Assembly (NCBI GenBank): GCA_964635155.1
Contig: CAZWNE010000003.1
Span: 1-40,418 of the forward strand
DNA from: an uncultured Candidatus Saccharibacteria bacterium
GTDB taxonomy: Bacteria; Patescibacteriota; Minisyncoccia; Minisyncoccales; CAZWNE01
Direction of reading: 5' to 3'
DNA length: 40,418 bases
Shown here: piece after piece, positions 1,378-40,418 of the stretch
How positions within the stretch are numbered: position 1 is the first letter of the stretch
How the letters are laid out: the number at the start of each line of letters is the position of its first letter
Notes under the pieces: model-generated
Told to the model about the DNA's origin: nothing
Databases searched by the model: none
Seen by the model: only the letters and a program-made list of their open reading frames with translations
Position numbers and translations under genes: made by a program

Positions 1378-1400
1378 AAAACGAATTTTTTATTCTAAAA

Positions 1401-1435
1401 AATGAAGTTAAAGATGAAGTCGACACTTCATCGCC
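1401..1435 (-). repeat. double-hairpin repeat family 1, partial copy (hairpin 1 + linker)
   Basis: The minus strand reads GGCGATGAAGTGTCGACTTCATCTTTAACTTCATT. It overlaps the stop codon of the ASCH gene. Confidence 0.6.
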
Positions 1436-1916
1436 TTTTTATTTTAGCAATATTTCCCAAGGTTAGCCACGCCGACATGTTCCCGAATCCGGCTTTATTT
1501 ATATTAAACGGCTTTATTTTCTGGGGCTTTTCTAAAAATATCAACAAACAGTATTTTTTATTTTTAAACAACTTATAAAATTCGGGGATTTCATTTTTCC
1601 CGATCCCGTCGTCTTTGCCGTATTTATTTAAAATTTGCTTAACTTTTTGAGGAGTCAGATCGGGAGGTCGATGAAGTAATACTTTATCGACACCTTCGTC
1701 CGCTCTGGGCGGACTCGGTAAATAAATAACTTTTTTTACTTTGGCTTTTACTGAAACCGGCTCCCCTGAATTTTTGAAATAAATTGTATCCCCTTTTTTT
1801 ATTTTCCCCCACGGACAGCGTTTGGATTTATACCATCTTGATTCTATTTTCTTTTCTCGGGAAAGAATCTTCCCCATCATCCCCCACGACTTTTTCATTA
1901 TAGCTACGTGATCCAT
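1428..1916 (-). CDS. ASCH (PUA-like) domain protein carrying an in-frame repeat-element insertion
   Basis: 162 aa. The N-terminal KKGDTIYFKNSGEPVSVKAKVKKV and C-terminal YCLLIFLEKPQKIKPFNINKAGFG are ASCH-like. The central LPSPPRADEGVDKVLLHR is encoded by repeat copy 1666-1718. Confidence 0.55.
   Translation of the reverse strand: MDHVAIMKKSWGMMGKILSREKKIESRWYKSKRCPWGKIKKGDTIYFKNSGEPVSVKAKVKKVIYLPSPPRADEGVDKVLLHRPPDLTPQKVKQILNKYGKDDGIGKNEIPEFYKLFKNKKYCLLIFLEKPQKIKPFNINKAGFGNMSAWLTLGNIAKIKRR
1666..1718 (+). repeat. double-hairpin repeat family 1, full copy inside the ASCH CDS (antisense to the gene)
   Basis: GGTCGATGAAGTAATACTTTATCGACACCTTCGTCCGCTCTGGGCGGACTCGG aligns along its whole length with copies 15434 and 38876. 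Both stems are retained. Confidence 0.7.
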
Positions 1917-4632: not shown

Positions 4633-4845
4633 TTATACACTACATTTCTTAATATCTCTATATTTACCATTTCTATAACTGAAATTAGATTTTGCCGTAT
4701 CTTTTGCAATCCACCCTTGCTCTTTCTTTGTTTTATATTCATCCTTATCAACGTAACAATGGCCGGAGATTTTAATTCCATTCTTCGTTTTATCAAAATA
4801 GATTTCCGCCAATCTTTTATTAACAATTGCGAAACACCATGACAT
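4633..4845 (-). CDS. small hypothetical protein (70 aa, Cys/Trp-containing)
   Basis: Internal ATG of track ORF 4633..4914 gives MSWCFAIVNKRLAEIYFDKTKNGIKISGHCYVDKDEYKTKKEQGWIAKDTAKSNFSYRNGKYRDIKKCSV. Its composition is globular, unlike the competing frame. The track N-terminus overlaps tRNA-Ser and is rejected. Confidence 0.4.
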   Translation of the reverse strand: MSWCFAIVNKRLAEIYFDKTKNGIKISGHCYVDKDEYKTKKEQGWIAKDTAKSNFSYRNGKYRDIKKCSV

Positions 4846-4952: not shown

Positions 4953-5846
4953 TTAAATCTCCATCCCTCTTAATGCCTTTATTCTCTCTTCGAGGGGCGG
5001 GTGGGTTGAAAATAATGTCATAAAGCTTTGGCCCCTTAAAGGATTGGAAATAAATAAATGGCTGGTGGAAGCTGAAGCCATCTTCATCGGATTTTTGTCA
5101 GCCCCGATTTTTTCCAAAGCGCTGGCTAATCCTTCGGGGTAGCGGGTCAGCAAGGCGCCTGAAGCATCGGCTAAAAATTCCCGCTTCCTGGAAATCGCCA
5201 TCTGAATCAGCATTGCCACTATGGGAGATAAAATCGCTAAAACCAATCCGGCTAAAGCCAATATGGAACCTGCCTGCCCGCCTTCGCGGTTGTTATTTCT
5301 TCTGAAACCGCCGAAAAATAAAGACCTGGTGAAAATATTTGAAATAATGCTGATGAATCCGACTAAAACCACAACCATAGTCATTAACAGCATATCCTTA
5401 TTTCCGATGTGCGACAACTCGTGAGATATCACCCCTTCAAGTTCGGTTTTATCCAGTTTTTCCAATAATCCCCTGGTCACGGCGATAACGGCGTGATTTT
5501 TGTCGCGGCCCGTAGCAAAAGCATTGGGCTGGGCTTCTTCTAAAATATAAATCGGGGGCGATGGCAATCCCGCGGTAATGCAAAGGTTCTCAACCAGCCG
5601 GTAAAGTTCTGGATTATCTTGTTTTTTAATGGGTTTGGCGCGGGTCAAAGCCAGCACCACTTTATCCGAATACCAAAAACTGGCAATATTCATTACCAAG
5701 CTGAAAATAACGGCGTAAATTAAAATTGCCGGATTCTGGAAGACGTTGCTGAAAATCCAGCCAAAACCGATAATAATTATCAGAAAAACTGAAATTAATA
5801 TCCAAGTCTTCCTGATATTGGATTCGGCATTAGAATAAATGGTCAT
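4953..5846 (-). CDS. htpX: M48 zinc metalloprotease HtpX
   Basis: 297 aa with N-terminal TM segments, an HELSHIGNKD (HExxH) motif and a C-terminal LFSTHPPLEERI. Confidence 0.9.
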   Translation of the reverse strand: MTIYSNAESNIRKTWILISVFLIIIIGFGWIFSNVFQNPAILIYAVIFSLVMNIASFWYSDKVVLALTRAKPIKKQDNPELYRLVENLCITAGLPSPPIYILEEAQPNAFATGRDKNHAVIAVTRGLLEKLDKTELEGVISHELSHIGNKDMLLMTMVVVLVGFISIISNIFTRSLFFGGFRRNNNREGGQAGSILALAGLVLAILSPIVAMLIQMAISRKREFLADASGALLTRYPEGLASALEKIGADKNPMKMASASTSHLFISNPLRGQSFMTLFSTHPPLEERIKALRGMEI

Positions 5847-6400
5847 CAGAATTTTACGCTAACCGGATTTTTCGCCGCAGCTTCTTCTAACTGGAAGAAT
5901 TCCTCCAGTTTGAATTTAAAGGCATTAGCAATAATGTTTGCCGGAAAGCTTTCAACTTTATTGTTTAACTCTATGACATTGCCGTTGTAAAATCTTCTCG
6001 CGGCCTGGATTTTATCTTCCGTGTCGGTCAGCTCTCTTTGCAGTTCCAAAAAATTGGTTGACGCTTTAAGGTCAGGATAATTTTCCGCTACGGCAAAAAG
6101 GGATTTTAAGGTAGCAGACAGCATATTTTCCGCCTCCCCTTTTTCTTTTAGTGTTTGAGCTCCCATGGCCCGAGTTCTGGCCTCGGTCACTTTTTCAAAC
6201 ACTCCGCTCTCATAAGCCGCGTATCCTTTGACTGTCTCTACTAAATTGGGAATTAAGTCGTATCTTCTCTTTAACTGGACGTCTATATCCGACCAGGCCT
6301 CTTTGACCCGGTTGCGAAGAGTAATGAAGCGGTTATAGGTTAAAATCAGCCAAAGAACTATAATACCGACGATTATTAAAATAATTTTTGTTATAGTCAT
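5846..6400 (-). CDS. lemA: LemA family membrane protein
   Basis: One N-terminal TM segment, then [40 protein letters not shown], typical of LemA. The TGATG overlap with htpX fits the common lemA-htpX pair. The start is chosen at MTITKII; the track starts at 6469 (TTG). Confidence 0.8.
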
Positions 6401-8487: not shown

Positions 8488-8526
8488 GGCGATGAAGTTA
8501 CTGCTTCATCTGCTTTCACCTTCGCT
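8488..8526 (+). repeat. double-hairpin repeat family 1, partial copy
   Basis: GGCGATGAAGTTACTGCTTCATCTGCTTTCACCTTCGC. It lies between the terminator of 8564..9100 and the groES -35 box. Confidence 0.6.
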
Positions 8527-8550
8527 TTTTCTCCAAAAAAGCTCGGTAAG

Positions 8551-10137: not shown

Positions 10138-10167
10138 GCCCCGGGTAAAATATCCGGGGCTCTTTTT
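10138..10167. terminator. terminator between the convergent protease and uvrA genes
   Basis: GCCCCGG-GTAAAATAT-CCGGGGC followed by TCTTTTTA. Confidence 0.6.
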
Positions 10168-11779
10168 ATTTAAGATTTTTTAAATATTGTCCAGTGTAGC
10201 TTTTTTTAATTTTAGTGATTTCCTTGGGATTGCCCTGGGCGACGATATAACCGCCTTTTTCTCCGCCTTCCGGACCCAAATCCAAAATCCAGTCGGAATT
10301 TTTAATTAAATCAAGGTTGTGTTCAATTGTGATAACCGTATTCCCTTTGTCTACTAATCCCCGCAAAACAAAAACTAATTTTTTAATATCGTCGGGATGC
10401 AAGCCGGTGGTCGGCTCGTCTAAAATATACAATGTCTTGCCCGTGGCTTTTTTAGAAAGCTCGTCGGCTAATTTTACCCTTTGGGCCTCGCCCCCGGACA
10501 AAGAAGGAGCCGATTGGCCCAATTGGATATAACCCAAGCCTACTTCGTTCAAGGTTTTCAATTTCTGGAAAATTGCCGGAATCGGCTGGAAAAATTTCAA
10601 AGCGTCTTCAACCGTCATTTCCAGAACATCGGCGATATTTTTCCCTTTATATTCAATGGATAAGGTCTCTTTATTAAATCTTTTCCCCTGGCATTCTTCG
10701 CACTCAACATAAACATCGGGTAAAAAATACATTTCGATTTTTTTCACGCCCTGTCCTTCGCAGGCCTCGCATCTGCCTCCCTTAACATTAAAAGAAAATC
10801 TGCCCGGCCGATAACCCCTGACTCTCGCTTCTTTAGTTTTGGTGAAAAGGTCTCTTATATATGTAAAACAGCTTGTGTAGGTTGCGGGATTTGACCTTGG
10901 AGTCCTACCTATGGGCGATTGGTCAACTAAGACCGCCTTGTTCAAATTTTCAATCCCCAAAATCGCTTTGTGAAGACCCGGCTCTTCTTTGGCCCGATAA
11001 AACCTTTTCAGCAAAGCCCGGGCCAAAATATCGTTCATTAAAGATGATTTGCCCGACCCCGACACCCCGGTGATGCAAACAAATTTCCCAAGCGGAATTT
11101 TAACGTCTATATTTTTCAGATTATGCTCTTTAGCGCCTTTGATCGTTAGAAACTTGGTTTCTTTTTGTTGAAACCGAGTTTCTATTAAAACGGTTTTTCT
11201 CCCCGATAAATAGTCTCCCGTCAAAGTATGGCTTTTTAATAGCTGACTTGGCGTTCCTTCAAAAATAATTTTTCCGCCGTGCTTCCCGGCCCCGGGCCCC
11301 ACATCTATTATCCAATCAGAACTCCTGATTGTCTGAGGATCGTGTTCAACTACAATAACGCTATTTCCCAAATTTCTTAATTTTTTTAAGGTTTCAATAA
11401 GCCGGCCCTGATCTCGGGGATGAAGCCCGACCGATGGTTCATCTAAAATATATAAAACTCCGGTTAATTTGGAGCCGATTTGAGTGGCTAATCTTATTCT
11501 TTGCTCTTCCCCGCCGGATAGAGTATCGGCGCGTCTGTCTAAGGTTAAATAATCCAGGCCAACATCAATTAAAAACTGTAAACGATTGATAATTTCTTTA
11601 ATAATCGGGTTGGCAATTTTTATTTCATCGGCTTTCAGTTTTAAGCCGGCAAAAAACTCCTTCAATTTATCAATCGGCATTTCTACGATTTTATCGATTG
11701 ATTTTCCAGCTATTGTCACGGCTAATACTTCCGGCTTTAATCTTTTTCCATGGCAAATTTCGCATTTTTTCACGAGCAT
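10166..11779 (-). CDS. uvrA: excinuclease ABC subunit A, C-terminal fragment (downstream of the in-frame TAG)
   Basis: 537 aa starting [21 protein letters not shown], with [12 protein letters not shown], a second Walker [11 protein letters not shown], zinc module CEACEGQG...CEECQGKRF and [12 protein letters not shown]. Confidence 0.9.
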
Positions 11780-11785
11780 GTATTG

Positions 11786-12787
11786 CTAAATTTCCTGCCT
11801 GACAAAATCAGAATCGGTTTCGTGATATATTCTTTCAAGCCAAGGAATAACGCCTTCAATATCTGCCTGACCATACTTATATATTAAATTGGGATTGGCT
11901 AAAACCAATTTCGGGTCAACTTCCAATTTTTCGCCCAGGCCCTGGCATCCGGGACACGCTCCAAAAGGGGAATTGAAAGAAAAAAGGCGAGGTTCCAATT
12001 CTTGCATAGAAATACCGCAGGCCTCGCAGGCAAAATTCTCGCTGAAAATTGAATCATTTACCATGACTATCCCCTTGCCTAGCTTTAAAGCTGTTTCCAA
12101 AGAATCAACCATCCTAGATTTATCCAAATCCCTATCCAGAATTAATCTGTCAACCACCACTTCAATATTGTGTTTTTTATTTTTATCCAGTTCTTTTGTT
12201 AGGGCCTCTTCTAAAAGATAAATTATGCCGTCTATCCTGGCTCTGACAAAACCGGCCCTTTTTATTTCTTCCAGAATTCCTTGATGCTCCCCTTTTTTCT
12301 GACGGATAACGGGCCCCAAAATGGTAATTTCTTTATTTTTAGCTCCGCCCGAGGATGGATTTAAAATCTGCTCCACAATCTGGTCAATCGTTTGCCGGGA
12401 AATCGGTTTGCCGCATTTCGGGCAATGAGGCTTGCCGATTCTGGCAAATAAAAGACGAAGATAATCATAAATCTCCGTCATTGTGCCCACGGTGGAGCGC
12501 GGATTATGGCTGGCTTTTCTTTGGTCAATGGAAATTGCCGGGGAAATCCCTTCGATAGAATCGGCATCGGGCTTGTCCATTATTCCCAGAAACTGCCTGG
12601 CATAAGGCGAAAGCGATTCCACGTATCTTCTCTGGCCTTCGGCATATAAGGTATCGAAAGCCAAAGAGGACTTGCCCGAACCCGAAAGTCCGGTGATGAC
12701 CACCAGTTTATTTTTAGGGATATCAACGTCTACGTTTTTCAGGTTATGGACCCTGGCCCCCCGAATTTTAATAAAATTTTCCGGCAT
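11786..12787 (-). CDS. uvrA: excinuclease ABC subunit A, N-terminal fragment (ends at the in-frame TAG)
   Basis: 333 aa with [10 protein letters not shown], Walker [20 protein letters not shown]...CEACG and [17 protein letters not shown]. It is in the same frame as 10166..11779, separated only by TAG-CAA-TAC. Confidence 0.9.
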
Positions 12788-13897: not shown

Positions 13898-14765
13898 AAC
13901 CCTTGTCATCATCTTGTTATTGACGGCCGCCGGTTTTTATCTGTATCAGCAAAAAAAACAAGACCCCATTTCTCTTTCGGCAAGCGAGCTGGCGCAAGGC
14001 GACACTCTTTTAATTAAAATGAATGGCTCGGCATCCGAGGAGAAAATCACCGGAGAATTCGGTTCCCGAAAAATAGATTTTTTCCAACAGACAGCTATTT
14101 TAGGCATTGATGTCAATGAGAGGCCAGGCGAGCATATTTTAATTATAAATTTGCCAAGCGGCAAAAAAATAGAAAAAATAATCAATATCAGCAAAACGGA
14201 TTTCCCAACAACCGAACTTTTGGTCACCAAGGAACTCCGGAAAAAGGGTTACACTCCCCAAAAAATCGTCGGCAATATTCAAGGGGAAGAAGGTTTAACT
14301 TTAAAAAAAATTATTAGCACTTATACTCCAAAAATTTATTTTGACAAGGCCTTTATCAACCCCCTAAAAGAAATTAAAATCGTCGGGGCTTTCGGCATTA
14401 TCAAAAAAACCGGCAGTTCGACCATTCAGCACCTAGGAGTTGATTTGGACGCCGAAATCGGGACCGAGGTTTTGGCCAGCAACGACGGCAAAGTAAGTTT
14501 TTCCCGGGAACTGCCGGATTACGGCAGAACCCTGATTATAGACCACGGCTTGGGGATTTATTCTCTTTATCTGCACTTGGAAGAATTCAAAACTTTTGAA
14601 GGAAAACTGGTCAAACAGGGCCAAGTTATCGGGCTTTCGGGCAACAGCGGGTACTCCATTGCCCCTCATTTGCATTTTTCAATCAAAATCAACAATGCCA
14701 ACGTCGACCCGCTGAAATTTCTTGAAACCACGCAGTCATGGAGAAATTCAAATATCTTGGAATAG
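13884..14765 (+). CDS. M23 (LytM-type) peptidoglycan endopeptidase
   Basis: 293 aa with a signal/TM, HLGVDLDA (HxxxD), GRTLIIDHGLGIYSLYLHL and SGNSGYSIAPHLHFSI. Confidence 0.88.
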   Translation: MRKIKTLVIILLLTAAGFYLYQQKKQDPISLSASELAQGDTLLIKMNGSASEEKITGEFGSRKIDFFQQTAILGIDVNERPGEHILIINLPSGKKIEKIINISKTDFPTTELLVTKELRKKGYTPQKIVGNIQGEEGLTLKKIISTYTPKIYFDKAFINPLKEIKIVGAFGIIKKTGSSTIQHLGVDLDAEIGTEVLASNDGKVSFSRELPDYGRTLIIDHGLGIYSLYLHLEEFKTFEGKLVKQGQVIGLSGNSGYSIAPHLHFSIKINNANVDPLKFLETTQSWRNSNILE

Positions 14766-15940
14766 AACAAATTAACAAACTCCCCGAAACTCCCGGGGTT
14801 TATGTTTTCCCTGCCCTGAGCCGCGCCGAAGGGTTTCTTTACATTGGCAAGGCGGTTAATCTCCGCGATCGGACCAAACAACATCGTGGGTTGCTTAACC
14901 AGGTTAAGCAACTAGGATATATCCGAACTGATTCCGAGATTGAAGCCCTGATTCTGGAGTCCCAGCTAATTAAAAAATACCAGCCCAAATATAATACTAT
15001 ATGGAAAGACGATAAAAACTACTTTTATGTGGCGATAACTAAGGAAGATTACCCCAAAGTTTTAATAGTTCACCAAAAAAAAGAAGGGGCTGAATACATA
15101 GGGCCGTTTGTGGAAGGAAGCGCTCTAAAGCAAACGTTAAAAATACTTAGGAAAATATTCCCCTACTATACGCAAGGCAAGCACCCCAAGGGCCCTTGCC
15201 CTTGGTGCCGCTTAAATCTTTGCCCCGGACCAAATCCGGATAAAAAAGAATATCAAAAAAGCATTAAAAATCTAATTTCGGTCCTGGAGAGTAAAAAGAA
15301 GTCCGTCCTGAATAATTTGAAACAAGAGATGAAAAAGGCCTCAAGAGAAGAAGATTTTGAAAAAGCGGCTAAATTAAGGGACCAGGTCATAAATTTGGAA
15401 AAAATAATTTCCAACGCCAAAATCTTTCCGCAGGGCGATGAAGCGTTGCTTCATCTTCATCTTCGTCCCGCTTTACGGGACTCGATAATGGAAGCTTATG
15501 ACGTTTCTAATATCCAGGGAAAATATGCCACCGGTTCCATGGTAACTTTTATTAACGGCCGGCCGGAGAAAAATTTCTACCGCAAATTCAGAATTAAAAT
15601 GGCCGATAAGCCGAATGACACAGCTATGCTTAAAGAAATCCTCTCTCGCAGATTAAAACATTTAGAATGGCCTTTGCCCGATGCTATCTTAATTGATGGC
15701 GGAAAAGCGCAACTCAACGCCGCCCTGCTGATAGCTAAAAACTATCAACTAAAAACTAAAATAATGGCTTTGGCGAAAAAGAAAAACGAATTGTTTATTG
15801 AGGGGAAAAAATCGCCGATTTTATTAAAAACCATGCCGAGGGAAATGTTTAATTTAATTTTAAATTTAAGAGACGAAGCGCACAGATTTGCCATCTCTTA
15901 CCACAAAAAACTAAGAGCTAAAGCATTGCTTCCAGAATAG
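14738..15940 (+). CDS. uvrC: excinuclease ABC subunit C, short form (no C-terminal HhH2), carrying two repeat elements in frame
   Basis: 400 aa with GIY-YIG (PGVYVF...LYIGKAVNLRDR...EALILESQLIKKYQPKYN), a Cys cluster, a UVR domain (EEDFEKAAKLRDQVINLEKI) and an RNase H-like endonuclease domain (EAYDVSNIQG...YRKFRIK...ILIDGGKAQL). It ends right after that domain. Confidence 0.88.
   Translation: MEKFKYLGIEQINKLPETPGVYVFPALSRAEGFLYIGKAVNLRDRTKQHRGLLNQVKQLGYIRTDSEIEALILESQLIKKYQPKYNTIWKDDKNYFYVAITKEDYPKVLIVHQKKEGAEYIGPFVEGSALKQTLKILRKIFPYYTQGKHPKGPCPWCRLNLCPGPNPDKKEYQKSIKNLISVLESKKKSVLNNLKQEMKKASREEDFEKAAKLRDQVINLEKIISNAKIFPQGDEALLHLHLRPALRDSIMEAYDVSNIQGKYATGSMVTFINGRPEKNFYRKFRIKMADKPNDTAMLKEILSRRLKHLEWPLPDAILIDGGKAQLNAALLIAKNYQLKTKIMALAKKKNELFIEGKKSPILLKTMPREMFNLILNLRDEAHRFAISYHKKLRAKALLPE
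14890..14912. repeat. palindrome family 2 (10-3-10), perfect copy inside uvrC
   Basis: GTTGCTTAAC-CAG-GTTAAGCAAC, with exactly complementary arms. Confidence 0.8.
15434..15484 (+). repeat. double-hairpin repeat family 1, full copy inside the uvrC CDS (sense)
   Basis: GGCGATGAAGCGTTGCTTCATCTTCATCTTCGTCCCGCTTTACGGGACTCG is 51 nt (17 codons). Confidence 0.75.
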
Positions 15941-21293: not shown

Positions 21294-21308
21294 ACAATTT
21301 GCCAAGTT

Positions 21309-21329
21309 GTTAGACGTCGGACGTCTAAC
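21309..21329. terminator. perfect 10-1-10 palindrome downstream of the racemase gene (possible terminator)
   Basis: GTTAGACGTC-G-GACGTCTAAC. There is no clear U-tract. Confidence 0.3.
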
Positions 21330-21350
21330 ACGGCACTAATTAAAAAATTT

Positions 21351-27007: not shown

Positions 27008-27191
27008 ATAAAAATTGGTTTTAAAAACTTAATAGGACAAATAAGGTTTATTGCTAGCATTTTTTATTTAGAAGGACATGGTTTACAAAAACAAAGAGAA
27101 AGAAAAGTAAAACAGAAAAGAGTATTATCAAAATAACATAGAAAAGATACTAAAAAATAAAAAAGAATACTACCAAAGAAATAAGGAAAAA

Positions 27192-27794
27192 ATGCGAGAG
27201 CGAATGCGGTCGTATGGTAAGAAGTGGTATCTAAAAAACAGGGAGAGGATGCGATTGCTTCATAAAGAATACTATCACAAAAATAAAGCGGGCGTATCGC
27301 AATACCATAAAAAATGGTATAAAAATAATAAGGAAAAACTGTTAAAATATAGCGAGATCTATTATCAAAAAAATACAGAAAAAATACGACAACGCCATAG
27401 ATTGTATAATCAAAAAAATAAGAGAAAAATATTAAAGTATAAGGGGGAGTGGCAAAGACATATGGCGAAGACAGATCCTAAATATCGTCTTGATCAAAAT
27501 ATGGGGACAGCTCTCTGGAATTCCTTAAAAAATAAAAAAGCAGGAAAAAATTGGGAAATTTTTGTTAATTACACATTAGAAAATTTAGTAAAACATTTAG
27601 AAAAACAATTTAATAATAAAATGAACTGGAGTAATTACGGAAGCTATTGGGCAGTTGATCATATAAAACCGCGGAGTTTATTTAATTATTCTTCTCCGAA
27701 TGATCTTGGATTCAAACAATGTTGGGATTTAAAAAATCTACAACCATTAGAGAAAATAAAAAATATAATAAAAGGTAATCGTTATATTAATTAA
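27192..27794 (+). CDS. free-standing HNH homing-type endonuclease with N-terminal tandem-repeat region
   Basis: The C-terminal WAVDHIKPRSLF...NLQPLEKIKNIIKGN is an HNH motif. The N-terminus holds about 6 degenerate 15-16-aa repeats (YYxKNxEKxxxxxx). The same frame continues upstream to ATG 27078 but is broken by TAA at 27108-27110. Confidence 0.75.
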   Translation: MRERMRSYGKKWYLKNRERMRLLHKEYYHKNKAGVSQYHKKWYKNNKEKLLKYSEIYYQKNTEKIRQRHRLYNQKNKRKILKYKGEWQRHMAKTDPKYRLDQNMGTALWNSLKNKKAGKNWEIFVNYTLENLVKHLEKQFNNKMNWSNYGSYWAVDHIKPRSLFNYSSPNDLGFKQCWDLKNLQPLEKIKNIIKGNRYIN

Positions 27795-31224: not shown

Positions 31225-31264
31225 TTTTATTATACTATTTTCTCCCTTTTTTAACAGCTTCTGA

Positions 31265-31287
31265 GTTGCTTAACCTGGTTGAGCAAC
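31265..31287. repeat. palindrome family 2 copy, between the GNAT gene and the ftsK start
   Basis: GTTGCTTAAC-CTG-GTTGAGCAAC, with one arm mismatch (G-T on the plus strand). Confidence 0.75.
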
Positions 31288-31875: not shown

Positions 31876-31888
31876 CTTGGCCTATTGA

Positions 31889-31911
31889 GTTGCTTAGCCT
31901 AGTTAAGCAAC
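31889..31911. repeat. palindrome family 2 copy, between the rpoC stop and the GNAT gene
   Basis: GTTGCTTAGC-CTA-GTTAAGCAAC, with one arm mismatch (G-T on the plus strand). Confidence 0.75.
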
Positions 31912-38667: not shown

Positions 38668-38780
38668 ACAAAACAAACGAAAAGACCCTAATGCTTATCT
38701 TGTTTTAGGGTAAAAATATTGAATTTTAACTTAAAAATGAGGGGGTCAATTATTTATCAAGTTTTTAATTCATTAAAAAT

Positions 38781-38812
38781 GCAGATGAAGATGAAGCTTT
38801 AGCTTCGTCGCC
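38781..38812 (-). repeat. double-hairpin repeat family 1, partial copy in the rpoB leader
   Basis: The minus strand reads GGCGACGAAGCTAAAGCTTCATCTTCATCTGC. Confidence 0.65.
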
Positions 38813-38870: not shown

Positions 38871-38875
38871 GTACG

Positions 38876-38928
38876 CGAGTCCCGCAAAGCGGGACAAAGC
38901 GTGAAGATAAAGCTTTAGCTTCATCGCC
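38876..38928 (-). repeat. double-hairpin repeat family 1, full intergenic copy
   Basis: The minus strand reads GGCGATGAAGCTAAAGCTTTATCTTCACGCTTTGTCCCGCTTTGCGGGACTCG. It starts 2 nt after the TAG stop of the TPR gene and ends 5 nt before a TTGACA box. Confidence 0.75.
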
Positions 38929-38930
38929 AG

Positions 38931-40418
38931 CTACTTCTTGTTCAAATCGTTCAAGCGCAATTTTACTTCCTGATTATCCGGGTTTAATTCCAGCACTTTT
39001 TCAAAATAAGTTCTAGCTTTGGCATTATTCCCTTTTCTCTGCCAGGCCAAGCCCAAAGAATAAAGGGCGTTAGAATGATTGGGAAAGATTTGAAGCACGG
39101 TTTCGAACACGGCAATGCTGTCTTGCAATTGATTATTGTTATAGTAAAGCCGGCCGAGCCAGAATCTCAATTCCGCATTGAAGGGATTCGCTAAAACCAG
39201 ACTCTCCGTTGTTTTTATTGCTTCACTTATGTTCCCTTCTTGCTCTTGGACCAAGGCCTCCTGGAAAATGGCATCGATAAAATCTGGTTTTAATTCTTTG
39301 GCTTTGATTAATTGCTCTTTAGCTTTATTCAAATCATCCGGAATGTAAATTTTTGCCAGCTCGGTTCTTAATACGGGATTGGTGGGTTCTAATTCAATGG
39401 CTTTTTCAAATGATTTTATCGCCCAGTCAGCAGCTCCCTGAGTCATAATTCTTATATCTCTGTAAACCATAGCCATTGTTTCCCACGCCGCGACTTGGCC
39501 GGGCCCCCTTAAAACAGCTATTTTGGCAGTGTTAATGGCCTTGGCCACTTTCGTCTGAATAAGAGTGCCATCTGACTCCAAAACGGCATCTCGCAAATAA
39601 GTCCTGGCAAGAACTGTCCAATACTGGGCCTGATAAGGATTTAATTTCGCTGTTTTTTCAAGAAGAGCAATTCTAACTTTAGCATCAGCCGTTCTTTGAG
39701 CCTGAAGAAAGGTTTTGTCCGCCAGATAAAACCTGGCGCCAAAAAATATTAGCCCCAGGGCCCCAAGGCCGACCATAATTAAAATTGTTGTAAAAACTAA
39801 ATTCAGTTCTGGAAAATTTTTAAAAGAAAAAACTTTCTCTTTGATGGGTTTTTGCCAAGAAACCACCGACAGGGCCAGCACCAGCCAGAAAACAAAAGCT
39901 AGAATCGTATTCTGATAATAAACAAATTGGCTGACTACTAAAGCGGTAAAAGCCATGAATAAAGGCAGCTGGTAATTTTTTGCCTCCGAATTTTTATTCG
40001 TAAAAAAATAACTTACCAGCAAAAACATTGAAATTAGCGCCAGCCAAAAAAGAATGCCCAAAAATCCCATTGTGCCAAGAATTTCCGAAAAATAAGAACC
40101 CGACCGGTCAAATCTTATCTGCCAGAGCTGATTCTGATTGAAACTAACCGGCTTTTCTTTGGCAAAATCATAATGGAAAGTGCCGAGACCGGAACCAAAA
40201 AAAGCTGACTTGACATTATCGGTTGCCGATTTAAATCCGACCTGCCAGGAAATACTCTGCCCCAGCACCCGCTCTCGAGGTAATTGGAAATCAATTAAGT
40301 TGACGAAAAGAAATAAACTTGATACTAAAATCAAAAATATCGGCAGCAAGAGCTTGTTTACGTTTTCTTTAAAAATTCTCTTCCATAAAGCAAAACCCAG
40401 GAATAAAATTAGGCTCGC
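38931..40418 (-). CDS. polytopic membrane protein with C-terminal TPR repeats (O-antigen-ligase-like/TPR type); N-terminus off window
   Basis: The reading frame stays open from 40349 to the window end, so the track TTG start is not the true start. It has several hydrophobic helices, then TPR units (FEKAIELEPTNPV..., ALYSLGLAWQRKGNNAKARTYFEKVLELNPDN). Confidence 0.6.
   Translation of the reverse strand, partial: ASLILFLGFALWKRIFKENVNKLLLPIFLILVSSLFLFVNLIDFQLPRERVLGQSISWQVGFKSATDNVKSAFFGSGLGTFHYDFAKEKPVSFNQNQLWQIRFDRSGSYFSEILGTMGFLGILFWLALISMFLLVSYFFTNKNSEAKNYQLPLFMAFTALVVSQFVYYQNTILAFVFWLVLALSVVSWQKPIKEKVFSFKNFPELNLVFTTILIMVGLGALGLIFFGARFYLADKTFLQAQRTADAKVRIALLEKTAKLNPYQAQYWTVLARTYLRDAVLESDGTLIQTKVAKAINTAKIAVLRGPGQVAAWETMAMVYRDIRIMTQGAADWAIKSFEKAIELEPTNPVLRTELAKIYIPDDLNKAKEQLIKAKELKPDFIDAIFQEALVQEQEGNISEAIKTTESLVLANPFNAELRFWLGRLYYNNNQLQDSIAVFETVLQIFPNHSNALYSLGLAWQRKGNNAKARTYFEKVLELNPDNQEVKLRLNDLNKK

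Follow-up and report, generated by a model that had tools for sequence, protein, structure and literature searches.

A 54-nt segment of DNA from an uncultured Candidatus Saccharibacteria bacterium is, with a probability that we put at about 75%, a copy of a palindromic repeat family of ~54 nt (18 codons) that occurs throughout the Patescibacteria and constitutes non-autonomous mobile DNA of the kind known from repetitive extragenic palindromes (REPs) and Rickettsia palindromic elements (RPEs). The segment occupies positions 1666-1719 of the window, by which we mean the whole stretch of 40,418 nt that was analyzed (assembly GCA_964635155.1, contig CAZWNE010000003.1, positions 1 to 40,418 of the forward strand), and it lies on the plus strand within a minus-strand gene for a protein of the ASCH family. 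Comparison of filled and empty sites shows that the unit is inserted precisely, without terminal inverted repeats or target-site duplication, and that related genomes carry the repeat at different sites.

Copies in the window were located 1) with a search pattern for the first hairpin of the unit, GATGAAG-N3-6-CTTYATC, applied to both strands, and 2) with a covariance model of the family, built from eight copies and run on the window with filters off. The pattern occurs 8 times, compared to 0.01 +/- 0.10 times in dinucleotide shuffles, and the model detects exactly six full-length copies, with the copy in the ASCH gene (copy C) among the two that score best. The copies and the two genes that host copies C and A are the following.

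1380..1435, minus strand: copy F, 43.5 bits, in the spacer between the ASCH gene and an ACT gene.
1428..1916, minus strand: ASCH-family gene, host of copy C, 162 aa, residues ~66-86 of which come from the inserted unit and the junction codons.
1666..1719, plus strand (model match 1667-1719): copy C, 70.0 bits, E = 4e-16, in the ASCH gene.
8488..8547, plus strand: copy D, 44 bits, between groES and the upstream gene.
14738..15940, plus strand: UvrC gene, host of copy A, with Pfam GIY-YIG, UVR and UvrC_RNaseH_dom.
15434..15487, plus strand (model match 15434-15486): copy A, 72.5 bits, in the UvrC gene.
38756..38812, minus strand: copy E, 29 bits, upstream of rpoB.
38873..38928, minus strand: copy B, 53 bits, starting 2 nt past the stop codon of a TPR gene.

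An earlier note on this DNA had recognized copy C as a plus-strand element inside the minus-strand ASCH gene and had asked whether its likeness to other copies exceeds chance; the model score and the shuffles bear out both the copy and the likeness. The span it gave, 1666-1718, has the location right and is one base short, and its supposed partial copy at 1401-1435 does overlap the stop codon of the ASCH gene but is in fact the full copy F. The plus-strand sequence of copy C is GGTCGATGAAGTAATACTTTATCGACACCTTCGTCCGCTCTGGGCGGACTCGGT. Folding gives two hairpins (-14.8 kcal/mol as DNA, z = -5.1 relative to shuffles), with helix P1 formed by 1670-1677 and 1681-1688, P2a by 1692-1694 and 1717-1719, and P2b by 1698-1703 and 1709-1714.

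The insertion into the ASCH gene is visible in both proteins and DNA. Among the best 120 of 1587 ASCH homologues, most (more than 100) are 143 aa long, and 18 extra residues are confined to the window protein (P0001) and to P0002 and P0003, both of which are 76% identical to it and have the residues at the same site. The inserted segment reads (Y)LPSPPRADEG[VG]D[KE][VA]LLHRPP where the other homologues have SFS, and in more than 100 of these homologues the core is continuous, as the earlier note had anticipated. At the DNA level, alignment with three loci (L003-L005) that encode P0004, the closest homologue free of the insert, leaves a single clean gap of 54 nt, corresponding to window positions 1666-1719 (GGTCGATG...CTCGGT) and to exactly one repeat unit, so the boundaries of the element coincide with those of the indel, another expectation of that note. 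The net effect is a gain of 18 codons with altered junction codons and no duplication of the flank. A CCGA/TCGG direct repeat was considered as a target-site duplication and rejected; it calls for one more indel, of 1 nt, and is not seen again at other insertions. The comparison shows that the unit entered the ASCH gene once, in the common ancestor of three lineages of the sample, and that it did so in antisense orientation and in a frame free of stop codons. Some other ASCH homologues (P0022, P0043, P0046, P0075 and P0094) exceed the 143-aa norm by N-terminal (~20-30 residues) or C-terminal (~15-20 residues) extensions, which may be other sequences joined to the genes at their ends or may reflect starts that were called wrongly.

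The window protein itself is below Pfam detection and gives no match; its homologue P0061 scores 28 bits against the Pfam ASCH family PF04266 (cutoff 21.2 bits) and P0004 falls just under the cutoff. The AlphaFold model of the window protein has a mean pLDDT (predicted local distance difference test score) of 85.8, and its best matches in the PDB found by Foldseek are the Zymomonas ASCH structures 5y6b and 5gus (E = 1.5e-6, TM-score 0.6-0.7). On the evidence of both the homologue score and the model, the host protein belongs to the ASCH family, with an ASCH/PUA-like beta-barrel fold. The insert is modeled as coil with pLDDT ~52 and sits between a strand (54-66) and a helix (89-99), hence in a surface loop. 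Its predicted translation includes LPSPPRADEGVDKVLLHR. The earlier note had proposed that the two orientations of the element yield two different peptides, which is true of the halves derived from the second hairpin; the first hairpin reads D-[EK]-[AV]-L-L-H both ways (GDEALLH in UvrC, VDKVLLH in ASCH), because it is a palindrome.

The remaining copies in the window occupy diverse positions. Copy A is in sense orientation and in frame 0 (GDEALLHLHLRPALRDS) and falls in the UvrC linker between the UVR and RNase H-like domains. The closest UvrC homologue, P0122, is 19 aa shorter at this site, and the indel is less clean than that in ASCH because the linker is hypervariable among homologues. Copy B is in sense orientation relative to the TPR gene (38931..40349, minus strand), and copy D lies between groES (start 8448, minus strand; Pfam Cpn10) and the upstream gene, antisense to both. 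Copy E, in sense orientation, has an A/T-rich P2b of a subfamily that it has in common with a copy at a different locus, L003:2074. Copy F is a full unit with an A/T-rich second hairpin and fills the whole space between the ASCH and ACT genes: its GATGA supplies the ASCH stop codon (TGA, 1428-1430), and the ATG of the ACT gene (1377) is 2 nt beyond its end. This spacer exists in three states, with copy F in the window, with a copy of opposite orientation in L001, and without any copy in L003-L005.

The unit consists of an 8-bp hairpin P1 (GATGAAGC/GCTTCATC), the linker TTC, helix P2a of 3-4 bp, the internal loop TTC/TC, and P2b, with the family consensus G-[GT]-C GATGAAGC-TAAA-GCTTCATC TTC ACC TTC [P2b] TC GGT. 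P1 and the internal loop are conserved, with P1 variants that include GATGAGG/CCTCATC and GAAGAGG/CCTCTTC; P2a covaries (ACC/GGT, ATC/GAT, ACGC/GCGT); and the P2b hairpin is hypervariable: 214 copies have 106 different 5' arms between them, the stems being mostly 6-8 bp and the loops 3-4 nt long. In the first 44 copies, 96.9% of the cells in the three helices are paired, compared to 77.7% in shuffles and 38-48% with slid partners, and 147 cells show changes on both sides, compared to 38.6 in shuffles; the pairing is somewhat inflated in that the alignment was fitted to the covariance model.

Copies of the family are widely distributed in Patescibacteria. When one genome per species was scanned for the hairpin-1 pattern, most matches were chance ones in GC-rich genomes, so that only low-G+C records are informative; true copies were found in records named Nealsonbacteria, Saccharibacteria, Parcubacteria and Patescibacteria, and all genome matches that carry the unit are Patescibacteria records. 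A metagenome scan for hairpin 1 plus the linker matched at least 120 loci, all of low G+C. The genome loci contributed 44 copies and the metagenome loci 315 further matches; the covariance model reports 366 matches in the fetched loci, at least 273 of them distinct after removal of overlaps and duplicates, in ~1.1 Mb of sequence retrieved for containing a copy. The canonical pattern has no match in viral contigs, and an origin of the repeat from phages was rejected on that ground. Rfam 15 holds no model matching the repeat (only two tRNAs in the window reach E <= 1), and full-text literature searches returned no description of such repeats in bacteria of the candidate phyla radiation (CPR). 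Some loci contain tandem arrays of the unit, with periods of 54 nt (L041:505-668 and L157:2387-2601), 60 nt (L213:6824-7058) and 48 nt (L228:3405-3546). The two 54-nt arrays are inside a long open reading frame (ORF), in frame 0, and encode repeated copies of the frame-0 peptide.

Evidence for mobility comes from empty alleles, which were sought by joining the flanks of each copy and searching the product against all fetched loci. Filled and empty alleles exist at many sites, and about 20 pairs have precise indels of 54, 45, 48 or 57 nt. None of these ~20 alignments, including that of the ASCH site, contains a target-site duplication, and no terminal inverted repeats are present at the ends of the unit, since the 5' end (GGCGATGAAG) and the 3' end (CTCGGT) are not reverse complements. 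The syntenic relative L123 (GCA_030649195.1) lacks copies A and D and carries the repeat at two places where the window has none. Similarly, L003:2074 carries a copy at a LemA/M48 junction, and the matching window site (5702-5997) is empty. In the UvrC homologue P0142 (L124:3991-4036) a copy of a shorter subfamily is read in frame 0 (GEESKFSSSPFAIARE) at a linker site that differs from that of copy A and is absent from the near-identical UvrC proteins P0163, P0177 and P0184; it is an independent copy.

For the analysis of gene context, ORFs were called by a simple long-ORF rule, and a copy was assigned to an ORF if at least 20 codons remained on each side of it. By this definition 97 of the 273 copies (36%) are inside long ORFs, 61 in sense and 36 in antisense orientation, another 124 are at a gene edge and 52 are intergenic, which places ~64% outside long ORFs. 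Frame 0 (GGC GAT GAA ...), which encodes the Ser/Pro-rich peptide GDEAKASSSPSP..., is used by 53 of the 61 sense copies and is open in 95% of those inside ORFs; in frame 2 the TGA of P1 acts as a stop. The net length difference between filled and empty alleles is divisible by three for 14 of 16 in-ORF cases (the context of the two exceptions is doubtful), compared to 1 of 6 at edges or between genes. These indels replaced an initial measure, the length modulo 3 between the boundaries of covariance-model matches, which was abandoned as not clean because subfamilies differ in their ends. When the ASCH inserts of the three orthologues are compared, their third codon positions show 83-89% identity (only 18 sites), compared to 54-68% in the rest of the gene. 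The precise 54-nt insertion, the majority of copies outside long ORFs, the occurrence of both orientations, the filled and empty alleles and the high identity of these third positions all favor the argument of the earlier note that the nucleotide or structural element, and not the peptide, is what propagates.

The flanks of the copies are conserved mainly on one side. On the upstream side, 62% of the copies have A and 27% have G at position -1, with little conservation beyond; downstream, positions +1 to +6 follow A-W-W-T-G-A (T at +4 in 61%, G at +5 in 56% and A at +6 in 81% of the copies) in every context class. The motif N-W-W-T-G-A (TCAWWN on the other strand) is already present in about half of the inspected empty alleles and therefore represents, at least in part, a target preference, and it is due to this motif that many copies lie 2 nt before ATGA starts. 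The possibility that the 3' flank is a copy-specific direct repeat of the P1 arm was dismissed after a permutation test (5.56 versus 5.49 +/- 0.04, not significant).

The observations that weigh against our reading of the unit as mobile DNA concern the placement and conservation of the copies, the ASCH site, the sampling and the search for an enzyme. Outside ORFs the copies are in sense orientation at a ratio of about 4:1 (56 versus 13 at stop codons, 84 versus 22 at start codons). Seventeen copies supply the TGA of the upstream gene (element positions 6-8), and in 41 of the 154 non-ORF copies an ATG opening an ORF of at least 80 codons is found exactly at +3, with no other offset represented more than 6 times; such frequent exact stop-to-start placement could reflect a role at the RNA level. 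Conservation at synonymous sites is higher in the ASCH insert than in its host gene, as the third-position identities indicate, and one of its stem pairs shows a C-G, T·G, T-A series across the orthologues, both of which hint at continuing constraint on individual copies. With its three helices, its many double changes and an internal loop conserved across distant lineages, the unit could accordingly be viewed as mainly a functional structured RNA of operon mRNAs (a 3'-end stabilizer, a processing site or a device for stop-to-start coupling with a stop codon and a start context of its own) whose intragenic copies are by-products, a view that we regard as improbable. Over 307 aligned copies the stems comprise 4612 Watson-Crick pairs (96%), 56 G·T, 71 A·C and 65 other combinations. 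A selected RNA fold normally shows many more G·U pairs than A·C mismatches; here G·U is no commoner than A·C, and the RNA-type wobble signature was rejected. In addition, 36 in-ORF copies, including copy C, are antisense to the mRNA, no U-tract follows the copies, no Rfam model matches, and mobile DNA typically shows the presence/absence polymorphism and tandem amplification observed here. The pairing of the stems together with the in-ORF indels in multiples of three and the differing insertion sites leads us to a mobile palindromic repeat at the DNA level and not to an RNA gene. Copies at orthologous sites keep their flanks, P1, linker and tail, yet P2b is sometimes wholly different and still perfectly paired, as in L169:6893 versus L138:2407 (average column identity of 87% over the whole aligned stretch) and in L151 versus L189. 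The simplest reading of these replacements would be ectopic gene conversion or intrastrand template switching among near-identical copies, and "covariation" could consequently arise without selection. A structured RNA is nonetheless compatible with mobile DNA, as it is for REPs, and an additional RNA-level role, as proposed for REPs, may exist besides DNA mobility. At the level of the protein, the 18 residues could be a lineage-specific insertion selected for ASCH function, with a coincidental or convergent likeness to the repeat, and their retention in three lineages with proteins as diverged as P0002 and P0003 agrees with this. We consider it extremely unlikely given the E-value of copy C, indel boundaries that enclose exactly one repeat unit, the presence of the unit in intergenic DNA and unrelated genes, and the predicted disorder of the loop.

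The earlier note had also suggested a search for target-site preferences. A one-sided flank motif does exist across the family, but the ASCH insertion site lacks its TGA and, like the other sites, has no target-site duplication, and the census of copies is biased toward loci fetched for containing one. As for the enzyme, the window encodes no transposase according to Pfam scans of 34 ORFs, all of which match housekeeping families or no family. All ORFs of the 1.13 Mb of loci were probed by phmmer with approximate IS200 and RAYT (REP-associated tyrosine transposase) queries, which detected one Y1_Tnp protein of 253 aa at L208:4468-5229 (Pfam 33.7 bits). It has 2369 homologues; most of those listed share 62-75% of their residues with it, most were met on one contig only, and three of them are named transposase, Patescibacteria group bacterium. 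These data raise the possibility that the unit is a strict REP mobilized by a Patescibacteria Y1 (RAYT-like) transposase or an IS200/IS605-type TnpA, strand-specifically and 3' of TCAWWN on the complementary strand. The absence of terminal inverted repeats and duplications, the subterminal hairpins, the one-sided flank and the strand bias are as expected from such an enzyme, and L208 and L245 carry both the gene and 54-nt copies. However, in all four loci examined (L208, L245, L246 and L247) the Y1_Tnp gene is bracketed by inverted hairpins of its own, different from the unit (for example, GTAGAGA-TCGGG-TCTCTAC), no 54-nt copy is adjacent to it, the nearest is 0.5-3 kb away, and L246 and L247 contain none in 20 kb. 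GTAG is found at the 5' edge (-3 to +1) of only 28 of 267 copies (10%), and the two hairpins of the unit do not resemble each other. We therefore rejected an association of the unit with RAYT on the present loci and treat the link as hypothetical only; mobilization of a strict REP in this manner seems to us doubtful, and quite unlikely.

The hairpins that bracket the Y1_Tnp genes form a second REP-like family, with a stem of 6-9 bp and a loop of TCGGG, CCCGA or ACGGG, that is dispersed in several loci and was recorded at the following places.

L208:4428-4444, 4712-4730 and 5229-5247: second REP-like hairpin family.
L247:9964-9980 and 10740-10762: second REP-like hairpin family.
L246:10860-10878: second REP-like hairpin family.

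A hairpin in the window, TGTTAGACG-TCGGA-CGTCTAACA (21308-21330, upstream of RNase J), resembles this family.

For the 54-nt unit, taken as mobile DNA, we envisage the following course of events. The unit would spread as DNA, probably as a single-stranded hairpin substrate for an enzyme acting in trans, and insertion would favor sites just 5' of N-W-W-T-G-A, often 2 nt upstream of an ATGA start. Frame-shifting insertions, and those that bring in a stop codon, would be purged by selection. Translation of the ASCH insert would give a disordered loop at the protein surface, flanked by a beta-strand and a helix, and the insert would be tolerated for that reason. The near-perfect stems and the replacement of P2b would result from ectopic gene conversion or template switching and not from selection for an RNA fold.

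Several known systems share some of these properties. RPEs are inserted in frame in unrelated housekeeping genes, nearly half of them are intragenic, and the benign peptide fits the protein fold (PMC10969869). They are about 100-150 bp long and are confined to Rickettsia and relatives (PMC10969869), with a CGTC tag at the end (PMC3733652). The 54-nt unit is likewise a palindromic interspersed repeat of a reduced genome that occurs in frame in unrelated genes and has a conserved benign frame, and RPEs are its closest functional analogue. The unit is set apart from the RPE description by its length, its two unlike hairpins (one of them hypervariable), its use of both orientations and its occurrence in Patescibacteria. 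It also shows no detected relationship in sequence to RPEs, with which it was not aligned directly. REPs of the GTAG and CGTC superfamilies have stems of 6-9 bp and loops of 3-5 nt, are present in high copy number mostly just downstream of genes and occasionally within genes, notably repair genes, and have no terminal inverted repeats or target-site duplication (PMC3733652). The unit similarly consists of short imperfect palindromes in high copy number, mostly extragenic, with 56 sense copies at stop codons and with copy A in a repair gene, UvrC. Unlike tagged REPs, it has neither a GTAG nor a CGTC tag (the C at -1 needed for the latter is present in 3% of copies) and no RAYT gene flanked by the unit; it is a fixed pair of different hairpins and not a single REP or an inverted REP pair as in REPINs (REP doublets forming hairpins); and its in-ORF fraction of 36% is far above what is usual for REPs.

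Palindrome-associated transposable elements (PATEs) derived from IS200/IS605 have no terminal inverted repeats or target-site duplication and show subterminal hairpins, conservation of one flank and strand bias. In IS200/IS605 elements, the left end is similar to the right end. The unit shares with PATEs the subterminal hairpins, the one-sided flank, the orientation bias relative to genes and the lack of terminal inverted repeats and duplication, but is much shorter, its hairpins are dissimilar and its flank motif is degenerate. Miniature inverted-repeat transposable elements, or MITEs, have terminal inverted repeats and target-site duplications as their defining features, both of which were looked for and are lacking in the unit. 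Like classical bacterial MITEs (Correia, ERIC, Coxiella QMITE and Nezha), which are non-autonomous, abundant, at times fused to genes in frame and a source of stop or start signals (PMC10969869; PMC5896051), it is abundant, sometimes in frame in genes and able to supply such signals. Precise insertion of a very small hairpin repeat without target-site duplication also links the unit to the small dispersed repeats (SDRs) of cyanobacteria. According to Elhai et al. 2008, SDRs are reportedly single hairpins of 21-27 nt with precise insertions of this type, including insertions into conserved genes; we know of no enzyme that mobilizes them. In contrast to SDRs, the unit is a 54-nt composite with a hypervariable module, and both its sequence and its host phylum are different. 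The features that distinguish it are thus the 18-codon unit, the composite with a hypervariable hairpin, the heavy in-frame residence in both orientations and the precise stop-to-start placement, and the element is a new, phylum-wide variant of palindromic interspersed repeats.

The window has 40% G+C and contains housekeeping genes (groES/groEL, uvrA, uvrC, recA, ftsK, rpoB/rpoC, RNase J and others) whose nearest protein homologues are from metagenome bins of Patescibacteria (CPR). Some further features of it are the following. A second and unrelated hairpin repeat family, GTTGCTTAACC-NGG-TTAAGCAAC, is found at 14887-14912, 31262-31287 and 31886-31911. UvrA (10166-12787, minus strand) is split into ORFs 11786..12787 and 10166..11779, which could be the result of a frameshift, a stop codon or a sequencing error; in L123 UvrA is a single protein of 927 aa. 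A tandem coding repeat with a period of 45 nt (27078-27430, ~7 copies, 61-70% identity) lies within or beside ORF 27192..27794, for which Pfam gives no match. A strong GC-rich hairpin, GGCGGGCGGAAGGG...CCCTTTCCGCCCGCC (1975-2017), between the stop codon of an aldehyde dehydrogenase gene (2116) and the ASCH start (1916), may be a terminator or another element.

Genomes of Patescibacteria are among the smallest and most streamlined, and are generally described as poor in mobile DNA. In the loci fetched for containing copies, these organisms carry a structured 54-nt repeat about every few kilobases, and one third of the copies would be read through as protein, including those in UvrC and the ASCH protein; other copies make up exactly the stretch that separates a stop codon from the following start. 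This provides a concrete and testable source for many small lineage-specific insertions in CPR proteins, and a caution for annotation, in that such insertions or extensions at gene ends should not be taken as functional. The repeat is a potential new marker for strain typing in metagenomes, and a compact system in which to study the movement of repeats that have neither terminal inverted repeats nor target-site duplications, and the way in which their palindromes stay perfect. A more speculative proposal, which we offer tentatively and think unlikely, is that the unit is an undescribed mobile module of Patescibacteria with a fixed recognition hairpin (P1, linker and internal loop) and a P2b cassette rewritten at resident copies, which inserts next to a TGA/ATGA motif without terminal inverted repeats or target-site duplication, persists as 18 benign codons or as whole stop-to-start spacers, and owes its movement to an enzyme or process that has yet to be connected with a repeat family. 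If true, it would be a major and systematic origin of indels in CPR proteins and of the architecture between CPR genes.

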